Shown here one piece after another: positions 14,101 to 53,801 of a stretch of 64,000 nucleotides of DNA. Origin of the DNA: an archaeon GW2011_AR5 (GTDB lineage: Archaea; Aenigmatarchaeota; Aenigmatarchaeia; GW2011-AR5); NCBI GenBank assembly GCA_000806115.1, contig JWKQ01000002.1, positions 256,815 to 320,814 on the forward strand, written 5' to 3'. Under the pieces are notes generated by a model. The model made no database searches. It had not been told where the DNA came from and saw only the letters and a list, made by a program, of their open reading frames with translations. Within the stretch, counting starts at the first letter, position 1; every line of letters begins with the position of its first letter. A program made the translations under genes and the position numbers.

Positions 14101-15585
14101 CTGGCGCCATCCATTATGTCAGCAAACCAAACAGCAACTGCTATGCTCAACATAAGCGTGACGTCATCCGGTGAGTCGATGAACATAACAAGCTTCAATT
14201 TCACGCTTACAGGCAACGCGACAACTGGCAACATCAGCGACGTGCGTCTTTACAGGGACGACGCAGCGCCACTGGGCGCATTCACGGACGCGGACACATA
14301 TCTGGTAACTCGAGGCACGTTTAACGAAGCAGATATCCAGCTCAACCTTTCAGTTATCAACTACAACCTGTCAGTGCCAACGAGCGCGACAAGGTTCTTC
14401 GTGACATTCAATATATCCGGCGGCGCTCGTACATGGGCAACAGTTGGGGTGCAACTCACTCCTAGCGGCATAGCGGCTGTCGGCAATGCATCAGGCCTTG
14501 CAATATCAGTGACGGGCAATTCAGTTGCATCCACGAACTCGACGATCCAGTCCGAAGCAAACCTGATATTCGGCACCGTCACGTCGAACTATCCTTGGAT
14601 TACCAACAAGACAACTTTGGTAAACACAACTAACATTTCAATTCCGATAACGAACGGGGGTGCAGCCACGGCAACATTGACGAGCGTGCTTATAACGTTC
14701 CTCAGCGAGGCCAATGCCAACAATGCATCGTCCAATTTCACTGTGGTCCGTGCTGACACAGTTGCATCAATAGCGGGCGGTGTCACAACTACGCTGAACT
14801 TCACTGTAAACGCCACGACAGGCGCGCAGCTTGTCGGCCGCGTAAACGCTAGCGTGATGCTGAGATATAATGACAGCAATTCCGCCGCCGCAGTCACAGC
14901 CGGCCCTGTAGAGACAAACACATCAGGATTGTTCGGCGTGGACGGGACATCGCCGACAATAAGCATAGTCAACCCTGTCCTCAGCGGCAATGTCAGCGGC
15001 AATCAGGTTGACGTAAACTTCACTCTCAATGACACGGGCTCTGGAGTCAACAGAAGTGCAATAGCAATAAGCATAAACAGCGTGGCGAGGAACGCGACAT
15101 GCAACAGCAGCGGGCTCAATTTCACCTGCAATTTCACGCTTTTCAGCAGCGACAGCTTGTTTGTGTTCGGAAGCATCACCGCGCGAATAACGAATATCAC
15201 TGACAACGCGACGAACTCGGCGAGCACGGCAGAAATCAACTTCACGCTCAACAACAATGATGGTGTCGCGAATCTGACAAGGCCGATAGTAGGCGCGGAC
15301 CCGTATGCTCTTGGCTGGAATACCATCCAGATGCCGACGCAGACCATGATGGAACAGCAGGGCAGGAATGCGTCGAACACCGGTGATTTCAACTTCACGT
15401 CGCTCATGGCGAGCCTGGGCACCAGCTGGACTCACATGTATTACAATACAAACGGCACGAGCACAGGCTGGGTACTGGCAACAAGGACGGATTTCGCGGG
15501 TTCCACGCTGAAATATCTGAACAACACGAATGCCAATCCTTACTGGATAAACATGACATCGCGTGGCATGGTGTTCAAGATATAA
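8104..15585 (+). CDS. Giant (2493 aa) secreted, N-glycosylation-sequon-saturated repeat protein (adhesin or S-layer-associated)
   Basis: N-terminal signal/anchor GVIFSAVFVAAIALFYVLPVFA, then about ten tandem ~150-165-aa modules. There is roughly one NxS/T sequon every 10-15 residues (by eye, not counted), no cysteine-rich domain and no C-terminal anchor. GGAGTG lies 8 nt upstream of the ATG. Confidence 0.9.
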   Translation: MNGFMKGIIKTGVIFSAVFVAAIALFYVLPVFAGPGITLTRENPSPANNTNVSTVGLARGYFFVNISINESLISLANLEVYNLSDAGSLFMNFTMTNSTDNTILNYTYFNVTGLFNGTFTWRVVGVNTSSLGANQTFGNFTVTLGQIYNAVITNPTNNTNTANDLTPEIRVSANSTFLTNMSLTLYTNKAGVIQAVRNLTILNGTETAFNLTQLTGGTYNIIAEAGNGADFKVNSTALTIVVTYLEANATLDVSNVRAGAEQNYTFTVANNGTDTIDRINITYDAGFEDPVAGDIVCPITTNIWNRSVDATNNMVSCIMPDRDVDSGITSGNSKTIKVENWSASNVAGNKTFLVDVRGLKNGNSSVVANMPAVAVFGNLTITGTSRAAAANQTGTTNLTMISFNFSATGEQMNITQIILTRNGTVTDADIVEVKLYNSTRENVGAAYNATEDFDIIAVNSSAPSNGRYTFSGLNFRVNSSQIVIVVVNVSSSATGGRTMNFSIEGAADVTSAGNESKQAITETFASQRSTSTTLYGTVSVTGASRAPATSAIGAGNVTVISFNFTTTGEAVNITGLNITLNGTGLTAADIKHIGLYNSTSADAGVLDGSGVNYDLIQWNISEPVKPGDDTTLRYNFSNIAFNVSSGATNVLLVVVNVSGSATGGHKFNASIEGAGDIISTGVSSGQSLVETLATMRSDNSTIYGNLSIVGTSRVSSTTQIGSKNVTVISFNFTATGEDMNITGINITINGTNLAVSNIDRVALYNSTLPNANVFNGTVSYDLIAWNNSAPVVTGSSMRYNFSNLGKFNVSSSAVNTLLVVINLTDEGVAGRTFNASIEGAADVVTKGGTSNLAITETISGQRSTSSTIYGNVSVVGSSIAPAGADVGQIGVGFLKLTLNATGEAVNISSINITSNNTRNQDVLRVRLFDDLGGTSTGTYERNADLPVAGATGSFGGDSSGSVLLTPTNPINISVNSLHYVYVVFDINTSATAGLDRLGASIQSVTATTAQGNDSYVSVTPQLTTGDPGAVNVDIRNLTGTASAITTGTAVARTGAGTLNNFTVTVNNTATGTLKDSIDEIRILFGGTGFTFADQAGNATCPTIASVPWNRTIISANIIVCNVTDSGGRLAADTNTTISLENFTASGTAGIYQLNVSVRGALGGVFNVSSNPSISVYGNLTAKATNGVNATTEVGKNRITFFYINLSASGEAMNVSEILVTFNGTGLVAADIASVELYNSTDKSTTIVNGSQTLIRTNVTPSAPDLTYNFSGLNLSVPADVTGQIVLVVANISGSATGGHVANATVINNNNMVTIGSLTGINAAENFTTQVNSTNTTIIGNLSIVGTSRVSSTTAIGTNNITIISFNFTAAGEAMNISGINITINGSSITAADIVGVALYNSTLPNANVFNGTVSYDLIAWNNSAPVKPGDDTTLRYNFSNLGKFNVSAGETNTLLVVINLSSSATGGRAFNASIEGAADVVTTSAISDKSITETFVSQRSATSTILGTLSITGTSRVATYTRLGTNNVTIISFNVSSSGEAMNITGINITLNGTRTTADIARVGIYNSTLPDAGVFNGTVSYDLIAWNNSEPVNGRYNFSNIAFNISSGGSNTLLVVVNVSSSAIGGLTFNASIEGAADVVTTGVTSGSTIAETVATPRSDSSTLVSLIAIGTSRAPATAIVNKTNITLISFNVSALGEQMNISGINITINGTVNVSAIASVGIYNSTLPDAGVFNGTVSYDLIAWNNSEPVGGGGNTLRYNFSNLGKFNVSVGSNTLLVVVNLSGNAAGGATFNASIEGAADMVTTGGVSGLDITETLATQRSSSTTIFGNLSVTATDSLASWTRLGSTNVTVLILNFTATGEQMNVSEIILTRNGTVTDANIIEVKLYSTDRPDIANFNGSQTPLVTNLTPSANRYNFSNINLSVPAGATGKIVLVVVNVSGTNTGAGGSTFNFSVESASDIVSSGNTSYQSIAETLTGSIRSNTSTLVGINVTATALAPSIMSANQTATAMLNISVTSSGESMNITSFNFTLTGNATTGNISDVRLYRDDAAPLGAFTDADTYLVTRGTFNEADIQLNLSVINYNLSVPTSATRFFVTFNISGGARTWATVGVQLTPSGIAAVGNASGLAISVTGNSVASTNSTIQSEANLIFGTVTSNYPWITNKTTLVNTTNISIPITNGGAATATLTSVLITFLSEANANNASSNFTVVRADTVASIAGGVTTTLNFTVNATTGAQLVGRVNASVMLRYNDSNSAAAVTAGPVETNTSGLFGVDGTSPTISIVNPVLSGNVSGNQVDVNFTLNDTGSGVNRSAIAISINSVARNATCNSSGLNFTCNFTLFSSDSLFVFGSITARITNITDNATNSASTAEINFTLNNNDGVANLTRPIVGADPYALGWNTIQMPTQTMMEQQGRNASNTGDFNFTSLMASLGTSWTHMYYNTNGTSTGWVLATRTDFAGSTLKYLNNTNANPYWINMTSRGMVFKI
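9232..14550 (+). repeat. About ten tandem coding repeats (~450-500 nt each) inside the giant gene
   Basis: The module consensus is ..G(T/A)SR....G..N(V/I)T.ISFNF(T/S)A.GE.MNI(T/S)GINIT.NGT....I..V.LYNST....VFNGTVSYDLIAWNNS.PV...RYNFSN..FNVS....TLLVV.N.S.SA.GG..FNASIEGAADVVT......I.ET....RS..ST. A CARDB-like segment occurs twice (about aa 250-380 and about aa 1040-1170), implying a higher-order duplication. Confidence 0.85.
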
Positions 15586-27331: not shown

Positions 27332-28048
27332 TTATCTTATGGCTTCGTATTCTATCTTGTCTATGTCCTTCTCGAAGTTCTTCTTGCTGATGAAGTACTT
27401 CAGGTATATTTTTGAGTATTTCCTTATCAGCCCCAGCCCGCCCCATTTGTTCATCCTGCGTGTTGATGTATACACGCAGGTTTCCTTGGAGAACTTGAAC
27501 GTGCCGAATTTGCCCGCACGCATGGCAAAATCATGGTCTTCCATCACCTTTAGGTTCTCGTCAAATCCGTTCACTTTCTCGAATATCTGCCTGCGCACCG
27601 CTATGGCAATGCCCGGAGCGTGGGGTTTTTTGGCGTAGGTGGTGAGGAAATCCACAAGGTTGTTGCTCATGTTGTAGATTATCTGCTCTTTCCACGACGG
27701 CGTGAAGCCGTATATAGTGCATGTCCACCCGACTACACCTTTTTTGAAATCCTTGCGTATCACGTCGAAGATGTTCGGAAATATTATGGAATCGGCATCC
27801 AGGAAAAGTATTATGTCGCCGCGTGCGGCATGTCCGCCTGCATTGCGTCCGTAAGACGCCGCACCGCGCTTTGCATAGACGACTCTTGCCACGTATTTTT
27901 TGGCTATTTTCACCGTATTGTCGGTGGAGCGGGAGTCGGCGACAATTATCTCATAAGGCTTTATCTGCTTCAGGTGGAAAAGCGTAGTCTCAAGATACTT
28001 GCCCTCGTTGAGCGTCGGGATAACCACTGAAATTTTCATGTCTGCCAC
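27332..28048 (-). CDS. GT2 glycosyltransferase (soluble)
   Basis: ISVVIPTLNEGKYL...IIVADSRSTDNT...ILFLDADS carries the GT-A DxD pattern. Confidence 0.85.
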   Translation of the reverse strand: MADMKISVVIPTLNEGKYLETTLFHLKQIKPYEIIVADSRSTDNTVKIAKKYVARVVYAKRGAASYGRNAGGHAARGDIILFLDADSIIFPNIFDVIRKDFKKGVVGWTCTIYGFTPSWKEQIIYNMSNNLVDFLTTYAKKPHAPGIAIAVRRQIFEKVNGFDENLKVMEDHDFAMRAGKFGTFKFSKETCVYTSTRRMNKWGGLGLIRKYSKIYLKYFISKKNFEKDIDKIEYEAIR

Positions 28049-28471: not shown

Positions 28472-28581
28472 ATCCTTTTCTTCGTCAGAAACCTGAAGGA
28501 TTGTGTTTCTGGCGACTCAGGAAAGCTTTGCTTTCCTCGAGTTGGGGTAAGACTTAGACCTTTCTTTTCGGAAAAGAAAGG
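28472..28581 (+). other. Hairpin series in the Zn-ribbon/ef1b spacer
   Basis: ATCCTT-(18)-AAGGAT at 28472-28501, with inner TTTCT-tcgtc-AGAAA. GGAAAGC-ttt-GCTTTCC at 28520-28536. CCTTTCTTTTC-g-GAAAAGAAAGG at 28559-28581, ending 7 nt before the ef1b ATG. Confidence 0.5.
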
Positions 28582-28840: not shown

Positions 28841-28891
28841 GAATGCATCTGACTGTAAAACCTATTTTTATACCGGCTGCCAAATATTCAG

Positions 28892-29944
28892 ATGCTAGAA
28901 CTGCTAGTGCTTTTGCTTGTTCTCCTTCTCGACGCAGCATACATCCTGATGCTTTTTTCAATCAATCTTCCTCAGGAAAAGCCGTACATCAAGAAGCTGC
29001 CAAAGATATCCCTGATTATTGCGGCGAAGGAAGGAAAAATCGTTGAAAGAACGCTTAGGATGCTGAAAAAGATCAAGATGAACACAGAGATAATAGTCGT
29101 CGCCAGCGATGCAGTAACGCTGAAGATTGCAGGAAAATATGCGAAGGTGGTGAGGGATAAAGGCACGGGAAAGGGCGCGGCGCTTAACCTTGCCGTTCGG
29201 AAAGCAAAAGGCAGGATACTATACTTCCTTGATGAGGACATGATTGTAACGAAGGATACAATCCAGAAGGTTTGTTCCGCCCTTGGCAGTCATGAGGTGG
29301 CTGTGGGCTATAACCTCGCCGGGAACAAGGACGGCCCGGTTACGTATGTGGCGCGCCTGTACCTGGCGATGCTTACCAAGATGCAGTTCGGCATCTACAG
29401 GCTCATAGGAACCACGTTCGTGGCGGGCAGGAATTTTGCAATATACAAGAAAACCCTCGCAAATGCCGGAAATTTCAGGAATGTGCTGACCGAAGACCTT
29501 GACCTCTCTTTCCGGCTCTTCGCGCGGCACAAGAAGGTGAAGTACGTGAACGCAGGGGCGCGTGACCAGGCGCCGTCGCGCTTCCTCTGGTATTTGAAGC
29601 AGCAGCAAAGATGGAACGTGGGGGCGGGCGAAGCCATGAAGGCGTGGGAGAAGAAGTTCCATCACCACGACATATCGCTGCTCATTTTCCTGGTGCTTGT
29701 ATCGCTGATACCGTTGATGTCTTTTATATTCCTTGTCTTGGCTCTGGCTTTCGGCAGCTATCTCTTTCTTTCAGTGGTGGCAATATGCTTCCTGGTGTGC
29801 CTGTCGTCAGCCAGGATGCTTGGAAGGGATGAAATGCTGCTGCTGCCGGGGACATTCCTGCTCATGATAACGATCCAGTCGTTCACGATGATATATAGCG
29901 CAGCCATGAAGCCGAAAAACTGGTACAGGACTCCCAAGAAGTGA
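28892..29944 (+). CDS. Membrane-embedded GT2 glycosyltransferase, synthase-like (QxxRW)
   Basis: N-terminal TM, ISLIIAAKEG...EIIVVASD...LYFLDEDMIV...TEDLD...QQQRWNVG, then a C-terminal TM bundle. Confidence 0.85.
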   Translation: MLELLVLLLVLLLDAAYILMLFSINLPQEKPYIKKLPKISLIIAAKEGKIVERTLRMLKKIKMNTEIIVVASDAVTLKIAGKYAKVVRDKGTGKGAALNLAVRKAKGRILYFLDEDMIVTKDTIQKVCSALGSHEVAVGYNLAGNKDGPVTYVARLYLAMLTKMQFGIYRLIGTTFVAGRNFAIYKKTLANAGNFRNVLTEDLDLSFRLFARHKKVKYVNAGARDQAPSRFLWYLKQQQRWNVGAGEAMKAWEKKFHHHDISLLIFLVLVSLIPLMSFIFLVLALAFGSYLFLSVVAICFLVCLSSARMLGRDEMLLLPGTFLLMITIQSFTMIYSAAMKPKNWYRTPKK

Positions 29945-29965: not shown

Positions 29966-30097
29966 GACCAACTTAATGTCCAGATATTACACAAGTTGGT
30001 CACATACGCTGAAGAACAAAGTTCTTCGGCGTGCCAGAAAGCTTCGCTTTCTGAGCATAGTGAACCAAGTTATAATATCCAGATTCTTTACTTGGTT
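29966..30097 (+). other. Four-hairpin 5' region of the wHTH gene
   Basis: GACCAACTT-(18)-AAGTTGGTC at 29966-30001. GAAGAAC-aaa-GTTCTTC at 30011-30027. CAGAAAGC-ttc-GCTTTCTG at 30035-30053. AACCAAGT-(19)-ACTTGGTT at 30063-30097. A TATA-like ACTTTTATAG lies at about 29953-29962. Confidence 0.5.
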
Positions 30098-32018: not shown

Positions 32019-32328
32019 GGAAAAATCACTTATCTAATTATGGATTATAGTGGTATATATAGTTTTTTGAAATTTAGGGCGGAATTTTGTTTTCTCTTGA
32101 TTGGGAAATTCTTTATTTAGTTCGTGCGCGAAATAATATTGAAGACAAAGCATACAGGAACACCAGTTCTTTTCTCGCAGAAGCCTTAGAGCTTCTGGAG
32201 ACTCAGGTTGGACTTTGTTCAATCTCGAGTTGGAATACCTAGCTTTTTCTTCCAAGACGTTGTGAAGCACGCTTCACGACGCACATGAAGCTTCGCTTCA
32301 TGATGAGAGGATAGGTAAGGGATCGATA

Positions 32329-38352: not shown

Positions 38353-38358
38353 ATTGCA

Positions 38359-38431
38359 AGCATTTCGTTCGAAATGCTGCACAGCAAGAGCTTTGCTCTT
38401 GCTCGTGAGGGCTTTCTTTTTTAAAAGAAAG
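38359..38431 (-). other. Three consecutive perfect hairpins after the mini-ORFs
   Basis: AGCATTTCG-tt-CGAAATGCT at 38359-38378. AGCAAGAGC-ttt-GCTCTTGCT at 38383-38403. CTTTCTTTT-tt-AAAAGAAAG at 38412-38431. Confidence 0.55.
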
Positions 38432-38434
38432 GGC

Positions 38435-38554
38435 TCAACGGAACCATTTCAGCACAGGATCAATATTCGGCACGACGCCTGCAAGCATAGATATCACCAC
38501 GGCAAAAACCAGGAGAGTAAGGACTATCGCCACAACGACGTATTCTATTCTCAT
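38435..38554 (-). CDS. 39-aa hydrophobic mini-protein, Flp-pilin-like N-terminus without leader
   Basis: Hand translation gives MRIEYVVVAIVLTLLVFAVVISMLAGVVPNIDPVLKWFR. Its ATG lies 1 nt after the stop of the preceding mini-ORF (TAAaATG). Confidence 0.5.
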   Translation of the reverse strand: MRIEYVVVAIVLTLLVFAVVISMLAGVVPNIDPVLKWFR

Positions 38555-38555
38555 T

Positions 38556-38690
38556 TTATCTCAGCACTCCGAGCAGAAGGTCTATGTTATTCTGTATTCC
38601 GCCGTTAAAATGTATGTAGATAAGCAGGCTTATTCCCAAGCCCAGAAGGCCTATCATGATGAACACCACTTCGGTTATTGTCAGTTCCAT
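38556..38690 (-). CDS. 44-aa hydrophobic mini-protein
   Basis: Hand translation gives MELTITEVVFIMIGLLGLGISLLIYIHFNGGIQNNIDLLLGVLR. GGAGAAG lies 9 nt upstream of the ATG. Confidence 0.55.
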   Translation of the reverse strand: MELTITEVVFIMIGLLGLGISLLIYIHFNGGIQNNIDLLLGVLR

Positions 38691-38715
38691 TTTCAAAATC
38701 TTCTCCTATTTCAGT

Positions 38716-39627
38716 CTATGCACACCCCGTAATAGTGGGAGTACAGCCGAGGTTTCTTGCGGCTTCGCACTGCCCGCACGCGCCCCTGCCGAACTTGCTG
38801 CACTCAGTAAACTGTTCGCATACCAAGCAGGAGTTTGCCCATGGCCAGTACCAAGGCCCGCCCCAGTAGCAGCTTGCAGTTGATGTGCAGTCGCTTTCAG
38901 CGGCATGCCTTCTGCAGGTGTCAATTCCACATTCCGCGTCCCTGTCTACCGGCACGTCGAACGATGAAAGATAAGCGTCCGGGTGGCTCTCGAGCATCTG
39001 CCTCAGAGTGGAGCTGTCGATGTCGTCCGTCAATCCGGGTTTGTCCAGCCATGTTGTAAAATGGAATACCTCCCTGTCCCGCAGACTTCCAATCTGGCGC
39101 ATGTCGAATTTCAGCTTCAGGTCTTGCGGACAAATGAATTCGCCGCTCGGTGCGGCACATGATATTATTTCCTGTGTGTTTCCGTTCGTATCGCTGTAAC
39201 TTCCCAGTATGAGTTTGCTCTGCGTGCCGGAGATGCCCATGTAGTCCATTATTACGACGAAGTCAAGGCGGTCACTTTGGGAGCCGGGATACGCCCTGTA
39301 GAAGAATTTTAAGCCGTCAAGTATTACCAGCTGCGCATTAGGCGTGCAGTCCAGTTTTGTGAACTTTTCCAGCCCGCCTTCGCCGGGATTGTCGTTGGTG
39401 ATGTAGAGCTTCCCAGGCTCAAATACCTGCCCGATCTGGTTGAATATCTTCCAGGGCGTTACGCCCGCAACTATCGCAATGCCTATCGCAATAACGAGTA
39501 CCATGACTATTATGTAGAACCATGCGCCCATCGTTATCTGGAAGCCCATAGATTTATTGTGTCCGGCTGAAATAAAAAGAAAAATAGCTCTGTAGAAAAC
39601 CTGTGAGAAAAGCAGCAGGAGCATCAC
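38716..39627 (-). CDS. Secreted/anchored protein with very Cys-rich C-terminus (303 aa as drawn)
   Basis: TM FYIIVMVLVIAIGIAIVAG. The C-terminus is CGIDTCRRHAAESDCTSTASCYWGGPWYWPWANSCLVCEQFTECSKFGRGACGQCEAARNLGCTPTITGC. The first 7 codons coincide with an inverted-repeat arm, so the true start may be MGFQ (39549) or MGAW (39531). Confidence 0.75.
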   Translation of the reverse strand: MMLLLLFSQVFYRAIFLFISAGHNKSMGFQITMGAWFYIIVMVLVIAIGIAIVAGVTPWKIFNQIGQVFEPGKLYITNDNPGEGGLEKFTKLDCTPNAQLVILDGLKFFYRAYPGSQSDRLDFVVIMDYMGISGTQSKLILGSYSDTNGNTQEIISCAAPSGEFICPQDLKLKFDMRQIGSLRDREVFHFTTWLDKPGLTDDIDSSTLRQMLESHPDAYLSSFDVPVDRDAECGIDTCRRHAAESDCTSTASCYWGGPWYWPWANSCLVCEQFTECSKFGRGACGQCEAARNLGCTPTITGCA

Positions 39628-39754
39628 CGCATTGAATTTTGTTCAATGCGTGCAGGTGGAACTTGTTCCACCTTGCATTGTGTACCCACAATGCTGCTAG
39701 TAACTAGAGGGTATCGTGCATTCACGATACCCTCCCTGCTGCTTTTCCTTGAGC
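39600..39754. other. Inverted-repeat-flanked cassette of four perfect hairpins (MITE-like or structured-RNA element)
   Basis: Hairpins lie at 39629-39649, 39654-39673, 39675-39694 and 39707-39734 (the last has a 12-bp stem). The flanks share CCTGCTGCTTTTC in inverted orientation (39609-39621 vs 39734-39746). Confidence 0.5.
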
Positions 39755-39776
39755 ATTTCTACAGAGCAAGAAAAAT

Positions 39777-41389: not shown

Positions 41390-43372
41390 TTACCCTCTCA
41401 CAAGGCTGCTTGTTATCAGCGGCTCAAACATCACAAGCGTGACAAGCATGCATACTGTGAAGACCACGAAACCGACAATCAGCGATGTGCCAGTGATGTT
41501 CTGCCTGCCTATGGGATCCTCTCCGGACTCAATCGAATTTATGAACATGGCAAGTATGAAGGCAGTTTCAATCAGGTAAACTCCGACAATAAGTATGAAC
41601 TCGAACGGCGTAATCTTTACGTTGCCCAGCGAGGTTAGGAAAGGCACACTTACGCTGCCCAGGTTGCTCGTCTGTTCTGATATCTGCCTCAGTATCTTGA
41701 TGATTATCACAGCCAGCGTGACAACAATGCCCGATATGAGCGGAGAGAGAAAGTAAGACTGGAATTTTAGTGATGAGAGGGTGTCATTGAGCTGCTCTTT
41801 CACGTCTTCCTGGGTGTCGTGCAGCCCTTTCAGGTAGCGCGAGACGGAAAGCATCGCAACCGACGCGGTTCTTACGCCTTTTTTTGTCGATTCCACCACG
41901 GTTCTCATGATGGACTTGATGAGCTTGGAGGGATAGAATCTTATTGCCCCGTACTCCTTGTCGAAAAATGCCTGTCCGAACGTGAAGCCCAGCATCTTCA
42001 TGTTCTTGAGCGCCCTGCCAAACAAGTCCTTTATCTTCAGGTTTTGTATCCTTTCCATCGAGTGTTCCAGAGAAAGCTCTACAGGCACGCCTCCTGATAT
42101 CTGGTTTCCAAGCTGGAAAAGAGCCTCAGCAAATTCGCCTTCTATTTCCCTGGTTTTGCGGCGGATGGCGAGCCGCTGTTTTGACAGCATGATGTAGTAG
42201 ACCCCGAAGCCGAAGGAGATGCCCATCAGGATTACGATTGCGGGAAATATACCTTCGAAATCCGTGGAAGCGAAATACTCATTCACCGTCATAAAAGCCC
42301 CGAGGGCGATTATCATCACCCCTACAAGCAGCCCGACATGCCAAGCCTTGTAGAATTTTTTTCCCATTGCGAATTTGCCGGGCGGCGGAACGTCGGGATT
42401 CTCGGTAATATCTATCTTGCTGAAGGTGGCGGGCCTGGTCTCTAGTATTCCTGATATCACGAAATACAGCACGAGGGGAAGTATTATGTCATATCCGACG
42501 AAAAGCACCTCGGACGACACGCCGAGGAATGCCGCGAGTATGGGGAAAAGCACGAGTCCCATGACAGGGAGCACTATTCCGAGCGCGTGCACAACCATCA
42601 CCGGCATCTTGAGGTCCTGGTTGAAGTGCTTCGCCTGTTCCCTGCTTCCTTCGAGCACGATGTCAACCGCCTCGTCCAGCAGCACGATACGCTTGTCCCC
42701 GACCTGCTTCAGCGACGTTATCATCAATTCAACCGCCTCGACGAACGGCCTGTTCTTCGCCCAGCGGCTCGTGAAATCAACCAGCGCCTCCTGCATTGTC
42801 AGGTAATTTCCGATTTCCACGTCCCAAAGCAGTTTTTTCATCTCGTAGCCCATCGAGCCGCCGAGATTTTCCGCGGCGAATTTCACCGCAGCCTCGAGGT
42901 TAGGCACGTTTCTCATGTACATCGCTATGTAGAGAACAAGCGTGACTATTTCCGAGCCCGCGTCCGATTCGTATTTGCGCCGCAGACGCTTCGGGTAGGT
43001 GTGCACGTAAAAAGTGAAGAAGAGGGAAAGCATCAGCAGCATTAATCCGTAGCCGAAGGAAATCCCGGGAAGCTTCAAAGCGGTGAGAGCCATCAGGATT
43101 ATGGTCGGGATGACGGTTGCGAGAAGGAAAAATATTGTTACGGAAGTCGTCCCGCCGGGCGTCACTTTCAGGTGCGCGAACTCAATGGTTTCCTGTATCT
43201 TCGCGCGCGACTTTTTGTCAGGCTCGATGTGAATTATTCTCTCTGAAAAGCGGCACGCCTTCTCGTAGAGCGACTTGGGCATTGAGGCGAAGGCTTCTTC
43301 TTCCTGGTAAAGCCGGTATTCGCGCGATATGAGGTTGCGTATCTGTTCTTCCCGCTTTCTCTTCGAAGGCAT
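41390..43372 (-). CDS. Polytopic type IV pilus/archaellum platform protein (T2SS-F / FlaJ / TadC-like)
   Basis: 660 aa with two repeats of cytoplasmic helical domain plus TM triplets. Its position next to the secretion ATPase fits a platform protein. Assigned by architecture, not by a specific motif. Confidence 0.8.
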   Translation of the reverse strand: MPSKRKREEQIRNLISREYRLYQEEEAFASMPKSLYEKACRFSERIIHIEPDKKSRAKIQETIEFAHLKVTPGGTTSVTIFFLLATVIPTIILMALTALKLPGISFGYGLMLLMLSLFFTFYVHTYPKRLRRKYESDAGSEIVTLVLYIAMYMRNVPNLEAAVKFAAENLGGSMGYEMKKLLWDVEIGNYLTMQEALVDFTSRWAKNRPFVEAVELMITSLKQVGDKRIVLLDEAVDIVLEGSREQAKHFNQDLKMPVMVVHALGIVLPVMGLVLFPILAAFLGVSSEVLFVGYDIILPLVLYFVISGILETRPATFSKIDITENPDVPPPGKFAMGKKFYKAWHVGLLVGVMIIALGAFMTVNEYFASTDFEGIFPAIVILMGISFGFGVYYIMLSKQRLAIRRKTREIEGEFAEALFQLGNQISGGVPVELSLEHSMERIQNLKIKDLFGRALKNMKMLGFTFGQAFFDKEYGAIRFYPSKLIKSIMRTVVESTKKGVRTASVAMLSVSRYLKGLHDTQEDVKEQLNDTLSSLKFQSYFLSPLISGIVVTLAVIIIKILRQISEQTSNLGSVSVPFLTSLGNVKITPFEFILIVGVYLIETAFILAMFINSIESGEDPIGRQNITGTSLIVGFVVFTVCMLVTLVMFEPLITSSLVRG

Positions 43373-43911: not shown

Positions 43912-44295
43912 ATGATAATGCCTCCTTTATTTGACGAAATAATGCACAGGGCGCTTTCCAACGACGTGCGCCGCGAGATTCTTCTCAGCCTCGAGAAGAG
44001 AGACAAGTACCTGACAGAGATAGCCGAGGAGATAAAGAAAAAGCCCCAGACGATAGATTTTCACCTGAACCTTCTCGAAGAAATAGGGCTTGTTAAAGGC
44101 GAATGGCGCGAAGGGAAAAAATACTACTCACTGAAAGAAAAAAGAATACTCGACTTCCTGAAGAAAAGAAGGGCCATACCGGAGGAATTCAGGCCGAAGC
44201 CGCCGCATGAGATAGTGCTTGACATGTGGGAAGACATGAAAACGAGGCTGAACAGGATGGAGAAAAAGCTCGACAAATTAGGGGGCAAAAAATAA
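43912..44295 (+). CDS. ArsR/SmtB-family winged-helix regulator
   Basis: ALSNDVRREILLSLEKRDKYLTEIAEEIKKKPQTIDFHLNLLEEIGLVKGEWREGKKYYSL is the canonical ArsR HTH plus wing. Its stop abuts the stop of the convergent ATPase gene. Confidence 0.85.
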   Translation: MIMPPLFDEIMHRALSNDVRREILLSLEKRDKYLTEIAEEIKKKPQTIDFHLNLLEEIGLVKGEWREGKKYYSLKEKRILDFLKKRRAIPEEFRPKPPHEIVLDMWEDMKTRLNRMEKKLDKLGGKK

Positions 44296-46518
44296 TCAGT
44301 AGCTCTTCCGAAGCCACTGAAGCCATCTGTCGTATATGAGCGTGCTGTCCAATGCGCCTAATTCTTCTTTCACTTCGCTGCTTATGATATGGAAATGGGA
44401 ATTCGACGCTATTATGTTGTTCGCTTCGAGCAAGTCCAGACGGTTGTTGACGTTCGCGTAATCGACAATCGTCTGCATAATCTTGCCGCGCAGCTTTATG
44501 TTGTTCCACACGGCGTCCCAGTTGCCCTTCCACTCGCGCACGCGCTGGGCTATGTCGTTCAGCACAGCCGACTCTCCCATGAGCAGTGTCTTGCTTGGCT
44601 TTAGCACATCGTCCTTCGCCGAATAGTCAAGAAGGTTGACGAACCCGCCTTCTTCAGCCGGATCATTCTTCCAGTGCTTGCGGACCTCCGTCAGCTCGAC
44701 GCATCTTCTGAAAGATTTCAGACCGTCCGGCGATTTCAGCATGTTCGCAATGAGTATCATGTCAGTCGCCTTGAAGCTCGTGGGCGGCACGCCAAGGTCG
44801 TTCACAACCCTGTCGAACACGCCATAGGCAGAGTCGCCGTGGATTGTTCCCATGACTACGTTGGCTAATGCGCCGATTCGCATGGCTTCGTACAGCGCGA
44901 GCGCTTCCCTGCTTCTCACTTCGCCGATGACAAGAGCGGAATCGCCCAGGCGCAGCGCGGTTCTCAGCGCCTCTTCGGCGGGCAGTTCGGTGTCAACGTT
45001 GGTTATTACGCTTCGCGATTTCATGCTCTGGATATTATATCCAAGGTCGCGCAACTGATGGATCGGCAGTTCCAGTGTGTCTTCCACTGAAATAATTCTC
45101 AGCTTCGGCATTATCTGCACCATCAGCGCGCCGAGCATGGAACTCTTGCCTGATGATCTCGTGCCTGCTATAAGCATCGTCCTCGAGCCGTCAATCAGGA
45201 ACCACAGCAAGCCTGCGGAGAAAGGATCTAGCATCTTGTTGTTTATGAAAAGCGGGAGCGTCCATGGCTTGTCGCGATGCCGGCGGAAAGCGAAGCCGAG
45301 CCCGTCGGGCGACAGCGTTCGCGTAATCGCCGCGACTCTTGCCCGCCCCCCGGGCACTTCTATTTCAGTGTCAAGCACCGGGTTCGCCTCATCCAGCGGA
45401 CGCCCCGACTTTAGCCTGAATCTGGTCGCCCATGATTCCCCGTCTTCCCGGCTCGGCACGATGTTCGTTTCGCATTCCTGGTATATGCCGTGGAACAGGT
45501 AGACGGGTGACGTGCCGATCGGCGAGTTTATCTCGATGTCCTGCACGTTCTCGTCCTGGAGGATCAGGTCAAGTATTCCAAGACCGGCAGTGTATCTTGC
45601 AAGGATATTGGCAAGTTCTTCCAGACGCTTCTCCTGTATGTCGTGGTCCGCCGCCAGGTCACGCAGCATGTCTAAGCCGATTCTGAAAAGATTTTCACGT
45701 ATCCTTTCCGGCTCCTCGAGTTCGCTCTCTCTCGGTTCGTGCCTGCCAAGGTATCGCCGCGCCGTGTCGAGCATGTTGTATTCGATTTCATTGAGCCTGA
45801 ACTCGGGAGGGATGATGTGATAAAGCCGCCTCACCTGTCCCGGTATTGCATAGATTTCTATCTCAGTTTCCTCAACATTGTACCTTTCAAGCAGTTCGGC
45901 GTTCGCCGGCGGCAGCGATATGTATCGCGTGTAAATGAAATTGGGCCTGATAGTCGGGTGGAATATGCGCCTGTAGAGCGACCTGTCCTTGTGTTCGGTG
46001 ATGTTCGGCTTGGCCAGTTGAATGAGGCGGCAGTTGTCGAGCACAGCCGCTATCGGAAGCAGGGAATTGTTCAGGTAGTGGTTGTAGCACTGCTGCTTCA
46101 GTCCGGTTTCCCTCTCGGATTTTACTTTTATTCTCCTGATTTCCCGCGTGAGCGACCTGTAAGCTTCTATGGGGTCAAAACGGAGGTCGTTGAGAAGCCG
46201 CTGGAGAAAACGGTACCTTTCCTGCGAGTCGTCTTCGCAGCCGGCGATGACAACGTTCTTCAAAGAAATGAGCCTGTCCTTCATCAGGCGCTCGATTGCA
46301 AGCGCGATTTCCAGCAGCATCTTCGACTCTGTGAAGTCATATTCATACTCCCGCACGCCGGCGAAGACGATACGCACGACCTTCTTCAGTTCCATCAGTT
46401 TGTCGATGGTAGTTGCCATGCATGCGCTGTAGTCCTCGATGGAGTCGCCGTACAGCCCTCCGACGCAGTTGATGCGCATTTTTTGCGTCTCCTCGTCGTA
46501 GTCGTATTCGTACACCAT
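44296..46518 (-). CDS. Type IV pilus/secretion ATPase (VirB11/FlaI/PilB-TadA superfamily) with a long N-terminal extension
   Basis: Walker A IAGTRSSGKSSMLGAL, Walker B/Asp box ALVIGEVRSREA and His box VMGTIHGDSAYGV. At 740 aa it is about 200 aa longer than typical FlaI. Confidence 0.92.
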   Translation of the reverse strand: MVYEYDYDEETQKMRINCVGGLYGDSIEDYSACMATTIDKLMELKKVVRIVFAGVREYEYDFTESKMLLEIALAIERLMKDRLISLKNVVIAGCEDDSQERYRFLQRLLNDLRFDPIEAYRSLTREIRRIKVKSERETGLKQQCYNHYLNNSLLPIAAVLDNCRLIQLAKPNITEHKDRSLYRRIFHPTIRPNFIYTRYISLPPANAELLERYNVEETEIEIYAIPGQVRRLYHIIPPEFRLNEIEYNMLDTARRYLGRHEPRESELEEPERIRENLFRIGLDMLRDLAADHDIQEKRLEELANILARYTAGLGILDLILQDENVQDIEINSPIGTSPVYLFHGIYQECETNIVPSREDGESWATRFRLKSGRPLDEANPVLDTEIEVPGGRARVAAITRTLSPDGLGFAFRRHRDKPWTLPLFINNKMLDPFSAGLLWFLIDGSRTMLIAGTRSSGKSSMLGALMVQIMPKLRIISVEDTLELPIHQLRDLGYNIQSMKSRSVITNVDTELPAEEALRTALRLGDSALVIGEVRSREALALYEAMRIGALANVVMGTIHGDSAYGVFDRVVNDLGVPPTSFKATDMILIANMLKSPDGLKSFRRCVELTEVRKHWKNDPAEEGGFVNLLDYSAKDDVLKPSKTLLMGESAVLNDIAQRVREWKGNWDAVWNNIKLRGKIMQTIVDYANVNNRLDLLEANNIIASNSHFHIISSEVKEELGALDSTLIYDRWLQWLRKSY

Positions 46519-46559
46519 GGTTCTAATTGGACATCAGATTATTAATTGGTTATTGAAAC

Positions 46560-46725
46560 TTCGCATTCCACTGCTTTCAAGCAGTGGTTGAGAGGCAGTG
46601 AATGCGAATCATTGCAAAACTTGCTTTGCAATACAGGTAAACCGAAGGTTTACCATGTGTTCAATGACACACCAATTTCAACAAGCCACCGCATTTATGC
46701 GGTGGTCATTGACAAGTGTGCAATG
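46560..46725. other. Orphan array of six hairpins, with one mutually exclusive alternative helix (candidate structured ncRNA/regulatory element)
   Basis: Stems are listed in the findings. The array lies between, and is not needed by, the two divergent TATA boxes at about 46535-46548 and about 46765-46775. Confidence 0.5.
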
Positions 46726-46800
46726 TTTGCGAAACCCGACAAATCTTAAAATAGCAGCCATGACATTATAAGAGCAGAATGTGCGAAGTGATGTGAGAGA

Positions 46801-47184
46801 ATGCCGGACCCTACCAATGTCAACGTAATCATGCAGGAGCTTGTTCGCAGAAGCAACGAGGACTCGCGCCGTTTACGCAGCCTGGAACAGCGGCTTGACG
46901 GGATAGAGAACAGGATCAACAATTTCGAGAACGGCATGCTCGACAGGAACAAGAAGGTGAACCAGAAATTTGCCGAGCTTGACTTGTCGATGAAGACCGT
47001 TGGCGAAGAGATGATGAAGCTCTCTGCAGGAATAGAGAAGATAAACAAGCAGGTCAGCAAGTTCGCGCGCAAGCAGGATTTGAAGGAGATTGAGAGGATG
47101 CTGGACTTAATCAGCCCGATAAGGCAGGAATTCGTCACAAAGGACCAGCTGGAAGAAGAACTCAAATCTGCTGCGCAAAGGTAG
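46801..47184 (+). CDS. Coiled-coil protein (127 aa)
   Basis: Heptad-rich sequence LRSLEQRLDGIENRINNFENGMLDRNKKVNQKFAELDLSMKTV...KINKQVSKF. TATA GACATTATAAGAG lies about 27 nt upstream (leaderless). Confidence 0.7.
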   Translation: MPDPTNVNVIMQELVRRSNEDSRRLRSLEQRLDGIENRINNFENGMLDRNKKVNQKFAELDLSMKTVGEEMMKLSAGIEKINKQVSKFARKQDLKEIERMLDLISPIRQEFVTKDQLEEELKSAAQR

Positions 47185-47566: not shown

Positions 47567-47613
47567 AAAGCGTTCCGAGGTATAGTATACCGATTCTTTT
47601 CTTGGAACGCTTT
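47567..47613. terminator. Bidirectional hairpin between convergent genes
   Basis: AAAGCGTTCC-(27)-GGAACGCTTT, with inner GGTATA-g-TATACC. On the minus strand it is followed by TTTG. It overlaps the stop codon of 47612..48247. Confidence 0.45.
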
Positions 47614-48247
47614 ATATCTCTTCCTCGTGCATTGCCTGCTTGTCCTTCATCTCGTGTATCATCGTAGAAAGAGCCTCTATATTGCGGGTCAGCGAAGGCA
47701 GGAACTGCTTGAACGCCTTCTCTAATCCACCTACTCTCGCCTCAAGGTCTTCGAGTTGCTCGGAAATGTCAGCCATCCTTGAGTCAAGCTCGTGCGTCGG
47801 GCTTTCTCTCTTGTTCTGCTCGAGCTTCGCCTCGAACTGCTTTATCTCCGCCCTCATGCGGTCGAAATTGTCGTCTATCTTCTTCAGGCGGTCGTCAAAC
47901 TTGTGCCATTTTTCCTCGACTATGCCTTCTATCAGTTCTTCAAGCATTACTTCGGGCTGTTCTATCTCGCCGGTGCCGAACTCCGGCATCATCTCGGGTT
48001 CCTGCTGCTGGGGAAGCTCAAATATGTTGTCCATGGCGGGGGACTGCATGTCCATCTGCCTTGGCTCGTCATTAACGCCTTCCTTCACCGCCTTCAGCAT
48101 CGCGCTTTCTATAGCCTCGTAGGAATAGCCCTTGCCCTTCAGGTGCTTGATTATGTCCTTGTCGCTCATGCCCTTCTTCGTCATCCTCTGGACTTCGTCG
48201 ATAGGAACTTCTCTCGGTTCCTTTGGAGCTTTGTGAAACAATCCCAT
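47612..48247 (-). CDS. Coiled-coil protein with small N-terminal helical domain (211 aa)
   Basis: The N-terminus is PIDEVQRMTKKGMSDKDIIKHLKGKGYSYEAIESAMLKAV, followed by an acidic linker and a long coiled coil. The ATG at 48247 has AGGTG 6 nt upstream; the track start is the GTG inside that SD. Confidence 0.75.
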   Translation of the reverse strand: MGLFHKAPKEPREVPIDEVQRMTKKGMSDKDIIKHLKGKGYSYEAIESAMLKAVKEGVNDEPRQMDMQSPAMDNIFELPQQQEPEMMPEFGTGEIEQPEVMLEELIEGIVEEKWHKFDDRLKKIDDNFDRMRAEIKQFEAKLEQNKRESPTHELDSRMADISEQLEDLEARVGGLEKAFKQFLPSLTRNIEALSTMIHEMKDKQAMHEEEI

Positions 48248-48305
48248 GACTCGCACCTGATTACTATTGGCTCTGCGGGGTATTTATTGGTTATTTTTGC
48301 TTTTT

Positions 48306-48347
48306 GTGAACGAAAGTGAGCTAAAATAATGCGCTTCTTTTTCCGGG
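48306..48347 (-). promoter_or_regulatory. Promoter/initiator module copy C (upstream of 47612..48247)
   Basis: Minus strand reads GGAAAAAGAAGCGCATTATTTTAGCTCACTTTCGTTCAC, which aligns with copy B (GCTCACTTGCGTTCGC). Confidence 0.4.
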
Positions 48348-48355
48348 AAAAATGC

Positions 48356-48826
48356 TCACTTGCTGTTTCCGGCTATGAAGTACACCGCAATTGCCATTAT
48401 TATGATTATGAAGATTATGCCTATGACGGCGTCGCTCACTACGACGCTGAAGCCGCCCATGGCGATGAAAAATACTATTATCCCTATGCCCACAAGTATC
48501 GCGGCGACGCCCTTGTTGTCGAAGAACTTGCCTATCGAGCCTCCGGACATTGTTATGAACAGGACTATGACCAGGAGTCCGGCTATTATAATCGCGGCGT
48601 AGCCGAAGAGGTTCACGAAGAAGCCCGCCAGCCACGGCCCCCCGAAGCCCACTACGAAGAAGGCAAGCACCAGCGAAATCACGCCGACTATCTTGGTGTC
48701 CTCGAAGAATTTTGCCTTTGCAAGCAGGCCGTAAGTCACGGCGAACATGAATATCCACGGAAGCAGGAACCCGAAGAAGCCCAGGGCATTCAGGTTAGCG
48801 ACTAAAATCGAGAAGGGGTCTGCCAT
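48356..48826 (-). CDS. 4-TM membrane protein, paralog family member 1
   Basis: LNALGFFGFLLPWIFMFAVTYGLLAKAKFF...VISLVLAFFVVGFGGPWLAGFFVNLFG aligns with 49458..49958 and 50107..50568. Confidence 0.8.
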   Translation of the reverse strand: MADPFSILVANLNALGFFGFLLPWIFMFAVTYGLLAKAKFFEDTKIVGVISLVLAFFVVGFGGPWLAGFFVNLFGYAAIIIAGLLVIVLFITMSGGSIGKFFDNKGVAAILVGIGIIVFFIAMGGFSVVVSDAVIGIIFIIIIMAIAVYFIAGNSK

Positions 48827-48876
48827 TGATATCAGTTGTTATTATTCCTGTCGGCGAATAAATAGTTTCGCTTGTT

Positions 48877-49443
48877 TCAGGTTTTATAGACGTAGACTTT
48901 CTCCTTTTCGAACTCTTTTGCCGGCTTCATTGTCGGAAATTTTATCCTGTAGCAGATTATGGTTTTGCCGCGGAGCTTTTTCATTCGGGGTTCCAGTTTC
49001 TCGAGCGTCTTGTTCGGCAGGTAGCAGAATATTATGTCCGCTCCGGAAAGGTCCGCCTTGTAGAAGCTGGTTCTCAATATCCTTGCGTTCCTGACGCCTC
49101 TAATCTTCAGCCTTGCAGTGCTGAACAGCCATTTTAGCGGGTCGATTTCAATGCCTACGGATGTGAAGCCAGCTTTTGCGACAGCTTCCACTACCCTGGC
49201 GTCGCCTGAGCCGATGTCATAGAAAGCGCCGTTCCTTGCTTTGACTTCCCTGATTACCCGTTCAACAGCCTTGGCTTCGGTAGGCGTCCAGTAGGAGCCG
49301 AAAAATGAAGGGACATAGACTGAGCACGCCACCACGAAGAGAACAAGCATCGGTACGCCGGCATAGGTTCCCCAGTTTGCAAGAAGCAGGATGAATAAAA
49401 CAAACAGAAGAAAGACGATTTTGGCACGGAATGTGGATATCAT
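48877..49443 (-). CDS. Membrane-anchored class I SAM-dependent methyltransferase
   Basis: Two N-terminal TM helices, then motif I FYDIGSGDARVVEAVAKAGF.SVGIEIDP. Confidence 0.75.
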   Translation of the reverse strand: MISTFRAKIVFLLFVLFILLLANWGTYAGVPMLVLFVVACSVYVPSFFGSYWTPTEAKAVERVIREVKARNGAFYDIGSGDARVVEAVAKAGFTSVGIEIDPLKWLFSTARLKIRGVRNARILRTSFYKADLSGADIIFCYLPNKTLEKLEPRMKKLRGKTIICYRIKFPTMKPAKEFEKEKVYVYKT

Positions 49444-49457
49444 AATAAAGAAAAACT

Positions 49458-49958
49458 CTAAGCTTTCTTGGCTTCGCTCGCTGCACCATCAGGCTTTGTT
49501 ATGAGCCATACCGCAATTACTATGATTATCAGCCAGAAGGCAAGCGCCGCCACGCTCGAGTCAAGGTATACCTGGCCGACGAACGTGCCTGTGGAGCCGA
49601 GGAACAGCATTACTCCTATGAGAATCACTATTCCTACATATATCATTCCCTGACCCAGCTTCTTTTCATACCCAATCAATGCTAGGAACAGGATAATCAC
49701 AAGTATTCCTGCGAGGTACACCGACGCACCGCCGAACAGATTAATGAAGAAAGCTGCTAGTTGAGGTCCTGCCGCGCCTGTCACGAAGAAGGCTATTACG
49801 AATGAAAGCGCAAGATTAATTTTATCAGACTTCTTGTCTCCGAAAAGACCAAGTTTCGAAAGCAGTCCGTAAACGATTGCGAAAGTAAAAAGCCAAGGCA
49901 GAAGGAATCCGTAGAATTCCGGGCCGAGTATTGAAGCAGGGTTAAGCGAGAATGCCAT
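49458..49958 (-). CDS. 4-TM membrane protein, paralog family member 2
   Basis: ILGPEFYGFLLPWLFTFAIVYGLLSKLGLFGD...LALSFVIAFFVTGAAGPQLAAFFINLFGG. Confidence 0.8.
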   Translation of the reverse strand: MAFSLNPASILGPEFYGFLLPWLFTFAIVYGLLSKLGLFGDKKSDKINLALSFVIAFFVTGAAGPQLAAFFINLFGGASVYLAGILVIILFLALIGYEKKLGQGMIYVGIVILIGVMLFLGSTGTFVGQVYLDSSVAALAFWLIIIVIAVWLITKPDGAASEAKKA

Positions 49959-50000
49959 TTTGATTCACTTCTTATTATTTGATTGCGGGTGGTATATGTT

Positions 50001-50062
50001 CAAAGAACAAAGTTCTTTGGCATAACTGAAGCAATTTAATTATTCTATTGGGTTGCTTCAGT
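50001..50062 (-). other. Two hairpins in the 5' region of 49458..49958, one shared with the 30-kb wHTH leader
   Basis: CAAAGAAC-aaa-GTTCTTTG at 50001-50019 and ACTGAAGCAA-(18)-TTGCTTCAGT at 50025-50062. On the minus strand, TATA CGTATATATAC lies just upstream (about 50063-50072). Confidence 0.5.
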
Positions 50063-50106
50063 ATATATACGTTTTCTCGCCGATTTTCGCATTACGATGA
50101 AATCAC

Positions 50107-53312: not shown

Positions 53313-53378
53313 CACCGATCTTTTTCTTGGAAGAAAAAGCTAGGTATCCCAAAAAGAACATATTACAAAGGTGAAATC

Positions 53379-53801
53379 ATGCCTGAAAAAGGAAAGATTT
53401 ATCTCGACACGTTCGTCTTCATGGATATCCTTTCCGGCGGGGAAGACAGCAAAAAAGCCGAATTTTATCTTAACAAAATGAAAGAGCAGAAGTGCGTTGT
53501 TTCGTCAATTCTTTTCGCAGAGCTGGCATTCCACCTCAAGCGGAAGCGCGGCAAGGAGAAGACGGCGGAAATCCTTCTCTACATCAGTTCGCTGCCGAAT
53601 CTCGAGATTGTGCCGGTTACGATGGAAATAGCAAAGACGGCGGGCATGCTCCGCGCTCATTACTCGAAGCGCATACCCAAGAAGCTTACATATTTTGATT
53701 CAATACATATAGCGACTGCGATGGCTAGCGACTGTGATAAGTTTGTCACAGGCGACCGCGGATTTAGAGATGTGAAAGAAGTTGAGATGGAGATATATTG
53801 A
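53379..53801 (+). CDS. vapC: PIN-domain ribonuclease toxin (VapC)
   Basis: IYLDTFVFMDIL (Asp1), ..LFAELAF (Glu), ..YFDSIHIATA (Asp), ..FVTGDRGF (Asp): the four PIN acidic positions in the correct order. Size is 140 aa. Confidence 0.85.
   Translation: MPEKGKIYLDTFVFMDILSGGEDSKKAEFYLNKMKEQKCVVSSILFAELAFHLKRKRGKEKTAEILLYISSLPNLEIVPVTMEIAKTAGMLRAHYSKRIPKKLTYFDSIHIATAMASDCDKFVTGDRGFRDVKEVEMEIY

Follow-up and report, generated by a model that had tools for sequence, protein, structure and literature searches.

Between two divergent genes in the genome of the archaeon GW2011_AR5 lies a block of DNA that carries a string of perfect hairpins. We analysed this block within a 64,000-nt stretch of contig JWKQ01000002.1 (positions 256,815 to 320,814), hereafter the window, whose coordinates are used throughout; contigs and loci of the same population and of relatives are given L numbers. 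To the left of the block, the minus strand carries an ATPase gene (44296-46518, 740 aa) of the T2SSE family (Pfam PF00437, E = 7.8e-16), a PilB/FlaI-type protein of type IV pilus/archaellum-type secretion. To its right, the plus strand carries the gene of a 127-aa coiled-coil protein (46801-47184; weak DUF2730 match). An original prediction, made by a model from the DNA letters and their open reading frames (ORFs), had named these two genes and placed a promoter before each, in agreement with the Pfam match and with two conserved motifs. The first, the near-palindromic TATA-type motif AACCAATTAATAAT (46538-46551, minus strand), lies 20-33 nt upstream of the ATPase ATG, and its AACCAATTAATA motif is kept in all five lineages examined (L002, L005, L007, L012 and the window). 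The second, AAATCTTAAAATAG (46741-46754, plus strand), is kept in L002, L012/L018 and the window, and is likely the TATA box of the coiled-coil gene in L012. The strain-specific, non-coding hairpin block (46552-46740, 189 nt), whose ends were set by alignments and BLAST, exactly occupies the gap between the two motifs.

A scan of the intergenic region (46519-46800, 282 nt) for perfect stems of at least 8 bp with loops of 2-10 nt returned the same four hairpins as the inverted repeats of a repeat finder, and both placed them where the original prediction had. Packed into 140 nt (46568-46705), they are hairpin 1, CCACTGCTT-tc-AAGCAGTGG (46568-46587; 9 bp; -11.9 kcal/mol as RNA), hairpin 2, ATTGCAAA-acttgc-TTTGCAAT (46611-46632; 8 bp; -6.0 kcal/mol), hairpin 3, GGTAAACC-gaa-GGTTTACC (46636-46654; 8 bp; -8.7 kcal/mol), and hairpin 4, CCACCGCAT-tt-ATGCGGTGG (46686-46705; 9 bp; -13.3 kcal/mol). 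The prediction had described a string of six; its four 8-9-bp stems stand, but the other two, TGTGT-tcaatg-ACACA (46656-46671; 5-6 bp; -3.8 kcal/mol) and CATTG-acaagtgtg-CAATG (46707-46725; 5 bp; -2.9 kcal/mol), are at chance level and carry no statistical weight. When the 282-nt region was shuffled 5000 times with its dinucleotides preserved, perfect stems of at least 8 bp were absent from 4719 of the shuffles, while 271 contained one, 10 two and none three or four; 0.06 such hairpins are expected by chance, against four observed. Folding in both orientations, which had been recommended as a check, gave RNA z-scores of -5.46 and -5.45 against shuffles on the two strands, and the DNA fold of the block alone (-46.1 kcal/mol) had a z-score of -6.4. 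These results confirm the string of hairpins, which greatly exceeds chance expectation.

In addition, a long imperfect hairpin (46560-46608) is formed by an outer stem, TTCGCATTC/GAATGCGAA, together with ACTGC/GCAGT, and its inner part competes with hairpin 1. This alternative helix had been described as one that excludes hairpin 1, with the geometry of a two-state switch. The helix exists, but the exclusion was overstated: the outer stem TTCGCATT/AATGCGAA can coexist with hairpin 1, and the sole forced choice concerns ACTGC (46570-74), which pairs with GCAGT either at 46581 or at 46595. The competing folds have energies of -25.6 versus -19.7 kcal/mol on the plus strand and -20.3 versus -19.7 kcal/mol on the minus strand. 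What remains of the switch is that, within one helix, ACTGC has two alternative GCAGT partners.

Occupants of the same site in strains and relatives

In L002, whose flanks are 99.4-99.5% identical to the window, a 161-aa SET-domain gene lies exactly between the same two motifs. There the TATA motif sits about 17 nt upstream of the SET ATG, and the AAATCTTAAAATAG motif contains the SET stop codon; by its sequence and placement, the TATA motif may serve as a bidirectional promoter element. L012 and L018, in which the ATPase is 93% identical at the protein level, have only 14 nt at the block site. A SET gene also adjoins the ATPase gene in L007, L016 and L017 (ATPase 85% identical), which makes the SET gene the ancestral occupant and the 189-nt block the derived one. 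That a SET gene, or as little as 14 nt, separates the two motifs in relatives also bears out the earlier claim that this DNA is not needed as promoter. Since the block is absent from them, neither flanking gene needs it, and the block is dispensable and strain-specific. By BLAST, no homology of the block to the SET gene was found; the last 16 nt are alike at 9/16 positions only.

Three population contigs carry the identical block apart from one single-nucleotide polymorphism (SNP), which lies outside the stems at 46558. Numerous short metagenome contigs break off within the block, all with the same sequence, and the identical block was assembled from at least six independent samples. The occurrence of the same block in these independent assemblies rules out an artefact of assembly or of multiple displacement amplification. 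More widely, SNPs between population contigs fall in dense patches with long identical stretches between them (window 27441-28039, 28857-29791, 46342-46537 and 48264-49695 versus L165, L168 and L002/L149), a mosaic that suggests frequent homologous recombination in the population. L002 is also without most of the gene at 47612-48256.

One further occupant to be considered is a small protein. An ORF of 67 aa with a TTG start (46546-46749, plus strand) runs open through the block to the same stop codon as the L002 SET gene, and its end, AKPDKS*, is faintly like the SET C-terminus AKLAKS*. Yet gene calls found nothing within the block in any contig carrying it; the ORF was never called as a gene in at least 22 contigs, no such product is on record, and the TTG-initiated, palindrome-dominated frame has no homologous locus and is absent in relatives. 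We regard a coding role as highly improbable.

Homologues of the flanking ATPase were all found in metagenome-assembled genomes of Candidatus Aenigmatarchaeota (DPANN), the nearest being RIFCSPLOWO2_01_FULL_48_10 with 93% protein identity; the Aenigmatarchaeota clade of the window has about 45-50% G+C. In L007 (2229-5984), L012, L016-L018 and L026, the ATPase homologues carry an insertion of ~1.5 kb after residue ~482-536. The L007 insertion is an intein that includes a LAGLIDADG homing endonuclease (Pfam Intein_splicing, LAGLIDADG_3), and the window ATPase of 740 aa is without it.

The block also repeats part of itself. Its left part (46568-46620, plus strand), a CCAC-hairpin followed by a TTGA...TGC...AAAC segment, aligns with its right part (46686-46735, plus strand) with a Smith-Waterman score of 24, compared to 13.9 +/- 2.2 in shuffles (p about 0.002) and to 11-18 for other hairpin blocks. 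Hairpins 4 and 1 are paralogous, with 7/9 stem positions identical and both differences compensated. This likeness and the segment alignment together show that the block holds a diverged direct duplication of one module, a CCACnGCnT-NN-AnGCnGTGG hairpin plus its downstream segment; hairpins 2 and 3 separate the two copies. Apart from its two occurrences in the block, the pattern is absent from the window (expected number 0.13, even with two mismatches allowed). In viral contigs the degenerate pattern gave at least 120 matches, which we take as chance, 14 specified bases being too loose for a collection of that size; the exact 19-mer of hairpin 3 had no match in viral contigs, and blastn of the block against phage records gave none.

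A palindrome that occurs twice raises the question of operator sites. The two 20-bp copies (46568-46587 and 46686-46705), one per divergent promoter, could bind a dimeric factor, such as the ArsR-type helix-turn-helix protein (HTH_5) encoded next to the ATPase gene (43912-44295, plus strand), and half-sites of 8-9 bp with a 2-3-bp spacer are typical geometry for such binding. However, these sites are missing altogether from strains and species that share the ATPase, coiled-coil and ArsR genes, the remaining palindromes of the block are unrelated in sequence, and similar arrays elsewhere come after stop codons, where operators would be senseless. An operator function is thus quite improbable.

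Hairpin clusters elsewhere in the window and in related loci

The block had been called an orphan array, which it is not. The whole window contains 23 perfect hairpins against 8.7 expected, and these are grouped into about eight clusters including the block, mostly between 28 and 50 kb. The others lie at about 28.5, 30.0, 32.2, 38.4, 39.6, 47.6 and 50.0 kb, and the measured spans are 28519-28581, 30011-30053, 32178-32302, 38359-38431, 39628-39734 and, for the block itself, 46568-46705. Most intergenic regions of the window fold like their own shuffles and a few are extreme; no hairpin cluster was found in the 10 kb of housekeeping genes past the right end of the window.

Two of the clusters differ by discrete units between contigs. 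Contig L166 is without exactly the 60 nt of a two-hairpin cassette (28482-28541) between the aS21 and aEF-1beta genes, with a junction microhomology of 1 nt; its spacer otherwise matches the window save for one substitution, at 28569, in a hairpin loop. Similarly, contig L171 lacks a 53-nt cassette of two perfect hairpins (38353-38405) downstream of a small membrane-protein gene and has 'AG' in its place. Near 30 kb, a long imperfect helix (29975-30095) closes around a two-hairpin module, with a fold z-score of -5.8, and a further cluster (32150-32310) lies between divergent genes. At 49990-50065, two hairpins stand between the conserved TATA box and the ATG of a gene on the minus strand (49458-49958); the corresponding stretch is only about 36 nt long in L017 and is filled by unrelated sequence in L012. 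An ATATAC target-site duplication at these 50-kb hairpins was considered and dropped, the L012 and L017 alignments being ambiguous. Conversely, one intergenic region of L017 contains two two-hairpin modules, and its counterparts in the window and in L012 contain none. The clusters differ in place, and their positions are therefore not conserved among species with 74-79% identical aligned gene DNA.

The most conspicuous array is a 181-nt element (39587-39767) resembling a MITE (a miniature transposable element with inverted repeats), which fills the space from a stop codon to the next promoter. Its four perfect hairpins are enclosed by terminal inverted repeats of 12+13 bp, GCTCTGTAGAAA/TTTCTACAGAGC and GAAAAGCAGCAGG/CCTGCTGCTTTTC, which form two outer helices, and a 9-bp direct repeat, AAGAAAAAT, flanks it at 39577-39585 and 39768-39776. 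Its fold z-scores are -11.2 and -11.8 on the two strands.

Some modules and palindromes recur at loci that are otherwise unrelated. The 30-kb module (window 30059-30012) matches L017 2253-2314 (BLAST, 85% over 48 nt), and a third copy lies at L017 2148-2212, both L017 copies at a locus unrelated to that of the window. A three-way alignment supports 17 pairs in two helices, with 98% of cells paired and 6/17 pairs changed on both sides; these pairing values were reached in 1/500 shuffles, and slid registers fall to 34-51% paired. An AAGC-loop-GCTT apex is shared by hairpins at 28519, 30035, 32262, 32284 and 38383 and by hairpins in L017. A hairpin segment of ~57 nt (32230-32286, containing ACCTAGCTTTTTCTTCCAAGACG and GTGAAGCACGCTTCAC) recurs at L171 1533-1592 and partly at 53325-53352, with 88-96% identity; each of the three copies lies just upstream of a different gene start, one of them in the opposite orientation. 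Furthermore, a CTTT(T)CTTTT-nn-AAAAGAAA(A)G palindrome with T-runs on both strands recurs in distant Aenigmatarchaeota loci, its sites being window 28559-28581 and 38412-38431, L008 8230, L009 8220, L012 13753, L018 10626, L021 586, L023 7984 and L026 2598. Both window copies adjoin a gene boundary, and its composition suggests that this palindrome may be a bidirectional T-run terminator.

Beside the 38.4-kb cluster, an extra ~175 nt (L171 1110-1283) separates the two L171 genes homologous to 38556-38696 and 38435-38554 of the window. This DNA consists of two diverged tandem units of ~85-90 nt, each closed by a helix, TTTTGAAAAC/GTTTTCAAAA, and each with a potential ORF of ~30 aa; their hairpins, GAAATTGC-aaa-GCAATTTC and GAAGTTGC-ttt-GCAACTTC, differ by a compensated change.

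The remainder of the window is ordinary archaeal chromosome, with genes for FEN-1, aEF-1beta, aS21, GatD/E and glycosyltransferases, and with MCM and TBP just outside it. The minus-strand gene at 41390-43372 has a T2SSF match below threshold (21.6 bits versus a cut-off of 25.2), and a very large ORF of 2493 aa occupies 8104-15585 on the plus strand. A PIN-domain gene beside a MazE-type antitoxin gene (window 53379-53801 and upstream; L158 20062-20283) forms a toxin-antitoxin pair at the edge of a variable region, and is followed by the gene of a pentapeptide-repeat protein.

Origin of the block and the level at which its hairpins act

At about even odds (probability roughly 0.5), we read the block as a lineage-specific cluster of palindromic intergenic elements, similar either to the repetitive extragenic palindromes (REPs) of bacteria, with their bacterial interspersed mosaic elements (BIMEs) and REPINs, or to MITEs and the palindrome-associated transposable elements (PATEs) of haloarchaea. 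Three roles had been proposed originally, namely a structured non-coding RNA gene, a riboregulatory leader and a cluster of palindromic elements; the third fits best, and a specific RNA or leader is unsupported. The block would have been inserted or recombined into a permissive gap left by the loss of the ancestral SET-domain gene. Clusters of this kind are built from small hairpin cassettes, most often modules of two hairpins spanning 40-60 nt, which are gained or lost as discrete units among near-identical strains; for the block itself, mobility is something we infer. The hairpins would matter as structures in single-stranded nucleic acid, and their stems may stay perfect because the structure is under selection or because template switching corrects one arm from the other. 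Any effect on the flanking genes would be generic, through stable hairpins in read-through transcripts or through spacing or supercoil buffering between the divergent promoters.

Several observations weigh against this reading. A blastn-short search with all hairpin blocks found no second copy of the block or of its palindromes in the window and ~450 kb of Aenigmatarchaeota loci, although REP and MITE families are defined by their multiple copies; the own-genome sequence covered was the 64-kb window plus about 10 kb. Near the ends of 46552-46740 only a 6-bp TTCGCA/TGCGAA was found and no convincing terminal inverted repeat, and the direct repeat bounding the block is at most 3 nt (GTT), measured against the strongly diverged empty site of L012. 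No transposase, REP-associated tyrosine transposase (RAYT) or integrase was found among the ~30 window proteins scanned, which are about a third of its genes. The cassette indels could be hairpin-stimulated deletions instead of insertions. Finally, all four long stems with a single mismatch (4/4) carry G-T on the plus strand, among plus-strand genes, and none has A-C or another mismatch, which may indicate that some of the hairpins, at least, are under constraint as sense RNA. The original prediction had held that palindromes dispersed through the genome would turn a specific RNA into repeat DNA. The palindromes of the block were not found dispersed, but the class of hairpin cassettes to which it belongs is dispersed, modular and polymorphic in presence and absence.

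The G-T wobbles lead to the question of whether the block acts as a structured RNA. In this account, a rightward transcript from the former SET promoter (46538-46551) would yield a hairpin-rich small RNA or a leader of the coiled-coil gene, with the ACTGC/GCAGT choice as a switch. The 17-nt distance from TATA motif to SET ATG in L002 suits a leaderless mRNA, and the equivalent start in the window would fall at ~46568, the first base of hairpin 1. The block contains no T5 runs, so transcription would continue into the coiled-coil gene; the fold is strong (z = -5.5), every long one-mismatch stem in other blocks has the sense-strand wobble, and in the dispersed module double changes preserve the pairing. 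Against this, the block is absent from the closest relatives and unneeded by either flanking gene. It is invariant across all population contigs, hence there is no covariation at the locus, nor are there compensatory changes in relatives, where the site is occupied by the SET gene, 14 nt or another gene. The Rfam scan that had been proposed as a check gave no relevant match even at permissive E-values (best match in the region 22 bits versus a gathering score of 60, E = 0.22); at the gathering score the sole match in the whole window was a tRNA-Thr at 1232, and ARAGORN likewise found only that tRNA. No terminator-like site of hairpin plus T-run was found within 46552-46740, and the block is upstream of both flanking genes. 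Both strands fold with equal stability, and no stem of the block contains G-U. On the plus strand the long helix is ahead by 6 kcal/mol, which would make the switch strongly one-sided, and a start at 46568 would leave the outer stem at 46560-46567 outside the RNA. We therefore consider a structured RNA unlikely, and a specific riboswitch-like mechanism for the flanking genes is not favoured.

Stem composition bears on the same question. Stems of at least 9 pairs without G-U numbered 10-11 against 1.4 expected, compared to 8-9 against 5.7 with one G-U and 11-14 against 12.5 with two, so that the excess is confined to purely Watson-Crick stems. Together with the strand-symmetric folding, this would suggest that the hairpins are constrained or generated at the level of DNA, or that the elements are young. 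The wobbles give mixed signals: the plus-strand G-T mismatches speak for sense RNA, but the dispersed module also has, in its window copy, a U-G pair on the opposite strand.

An origin in DNA could also have been purely mutational. The block would then be filler DNA, formed on loss of the SET gene by snap-back or template-switch synthesis and perfected by quasi-palindrome correction, without function or mobility. It stands exactly at a site of gene loss; all its stems are perfect Watson-Crick with loops of 2-6 nt, and the excess is found only in perfect stems; the stems bear no relation in sequence, and none has a copy elsewhere in the loci searched; and template-switch correction, which is established (PMC7202029), would give two-sided changes without selection. 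However, no arm of the block was copied from nearby sequence, its 10-mers having 38 matches elsewhere in the window, whereas random segments have 42.5 +/- 20.7. Two-hairpin modules that are related to one another are found at unrelated loci of different genomes, and one array (39587-39767) is bounded by terminal inverted repeats, with a direct repeat on either side; these recurring modules and repeats imply that whole modules were moved or copied. In addition, most intergenic regions of the window have no hairpins, and a general mutational bias should touch all of them. A mere by-product of mutation is accordingly a doubtful origin.

A bolder version of the cassette idea would be that, in this clade of Aenigmatarchaeota, two-hairpin perfect-palindrome modules form an undescribed class defined by structure and not by sequence, which insert, duplicate and excise as units in intergenic DNA and can replace lost genes. 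The block would then be a composite of such modules, spread by a single-stranded-DNA enzyme that recognises hairpins or by a palindrome-making repair process. We offer this proposal as speculative and do not expect it to prove correct.

Other candidates were tried for the block and rejected. A replication origin was set aside as no Orc1/Cdc6 gene was found among the scanned proteins and the block is not unusually AT-rich, and an inverton as there is no promoter inside the block and no recombinase nearby. An integron attC site would be one imperfect, bulged hairpin, whereas the block has short perfect ones; it has no RYYYAAC/GTTRRRY cores, and the scanned proteins include no integrase. C/D or H/ACA guide RNAs, a retron and a CRISPR array were likewise considered and rejected.

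On the reading of the block as a cluster of palindromic elements, its annotation at the pilus-type ATPase locus should be neither a non-coding RNA gene nor a riboswitch. Given the very small, dense genomes of DPANN archaea, it is notable that about eight hairpin arrays are retained within 64 kb. The cassettes mark rapid change of gene content, with a SET gene, hairpins or nothing at one site, and they break metagenome assemblies, as shown by the many contigs that end inside the block. They may reveal an unrecognised system of small mobile elements in DPANN archaea, or a strong mutational process that perfects palindromes; if they act in RNA, they could provide cheap, sequence-independent stabilisation or insulation of transcripts in a lineage with few known regulators.

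Comparison with known palindromic elements

We found no paper on such arrays in Aenigmatarchaeota or DPANN archaea, and the nearest comparisons are with other groups. Hairpins at transcript ends, as in bacterial intrinsic terminators and the 'hairpin rule' of Mimivirus, are sequence-independent signals. They resemble the present arrays in being intergenic palindromes of unrelated sequence in which structure alone matters, and other palindromes of the window, CTTTCTTTT-nn-AAAAGAAAG, do lie at gene ends with T-runs. The block, in contrast, is upstream of both promoters, has no T-run and contains four to six hairpins instead of one.

Template switching that corrects imperfect into perfect inverted repeats has also been proposed for conserved perfect inverted repeats in Proteobacteria (PMC5941160). 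This quasi-palindrome process shares with our data the excess of perfect inverted repeats and the joint change of both arms. It perfects repeats singly, however, and leaves unexplained the dense arrays, the cassettes of 50-190 nt and the presence of one module at unrelated loci. Selfish palindromic repeats fill intergenic organelle DNA, for example in Volvox (PMC2670323). Like the present hairpins, they are short palindromes confined to non-coding spacers with fast turnover, but they form one sequence family of very high copy number, whereas many different stems in low copy are found here.

The REP/BIME/REPIN elements of Proteobacteria are similar to the block in that extragenic palindromes of ~20 nt stand head to tail in intergenic mosaic clusters, and similar to the window's cassettes in their strain-variable presence and in having the doublet as the apparent unit. 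REPINs are palindromic repeats mobilised by RAYT, a Y1 HUH transposase. REP stems are imperfect and the stems here perfect, no RAYT was seen among the proteins scanned, and the host is a DPANN archaeon. REPs also form high-copy families with a conserved GTAG/CGTC tag, whereas most stems here are unrelated and the palindromes of the block are single-copy in the data searched. REP palindromes form hairpins in single-stranded DNA or RNA and act in generic mRNA stabilisation, termination and gyrase binding (PMC3733652, PMC3184786).

MITEs and PATEs share with the cassettes that they are small, non-coding intergenic insertions with strong secondary structure and strain-variable presence. The block differs from them in having no convincing terminal inverted repeat, target-site duplication or second copy, and no partner transposase was identified among the scanned proteins. 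The element at 39587-39767 is MITE-like in its terminal inverted repeats and its 9-bp flanking direct repeat. PATEs of haloarchaea, which are related to IS200/IS605-IS1341, show that archaea carry palindrome-ended non-autonomous elements (PMC3119063), and they are the closest archaeal precedent for the hairpin arrays described here.

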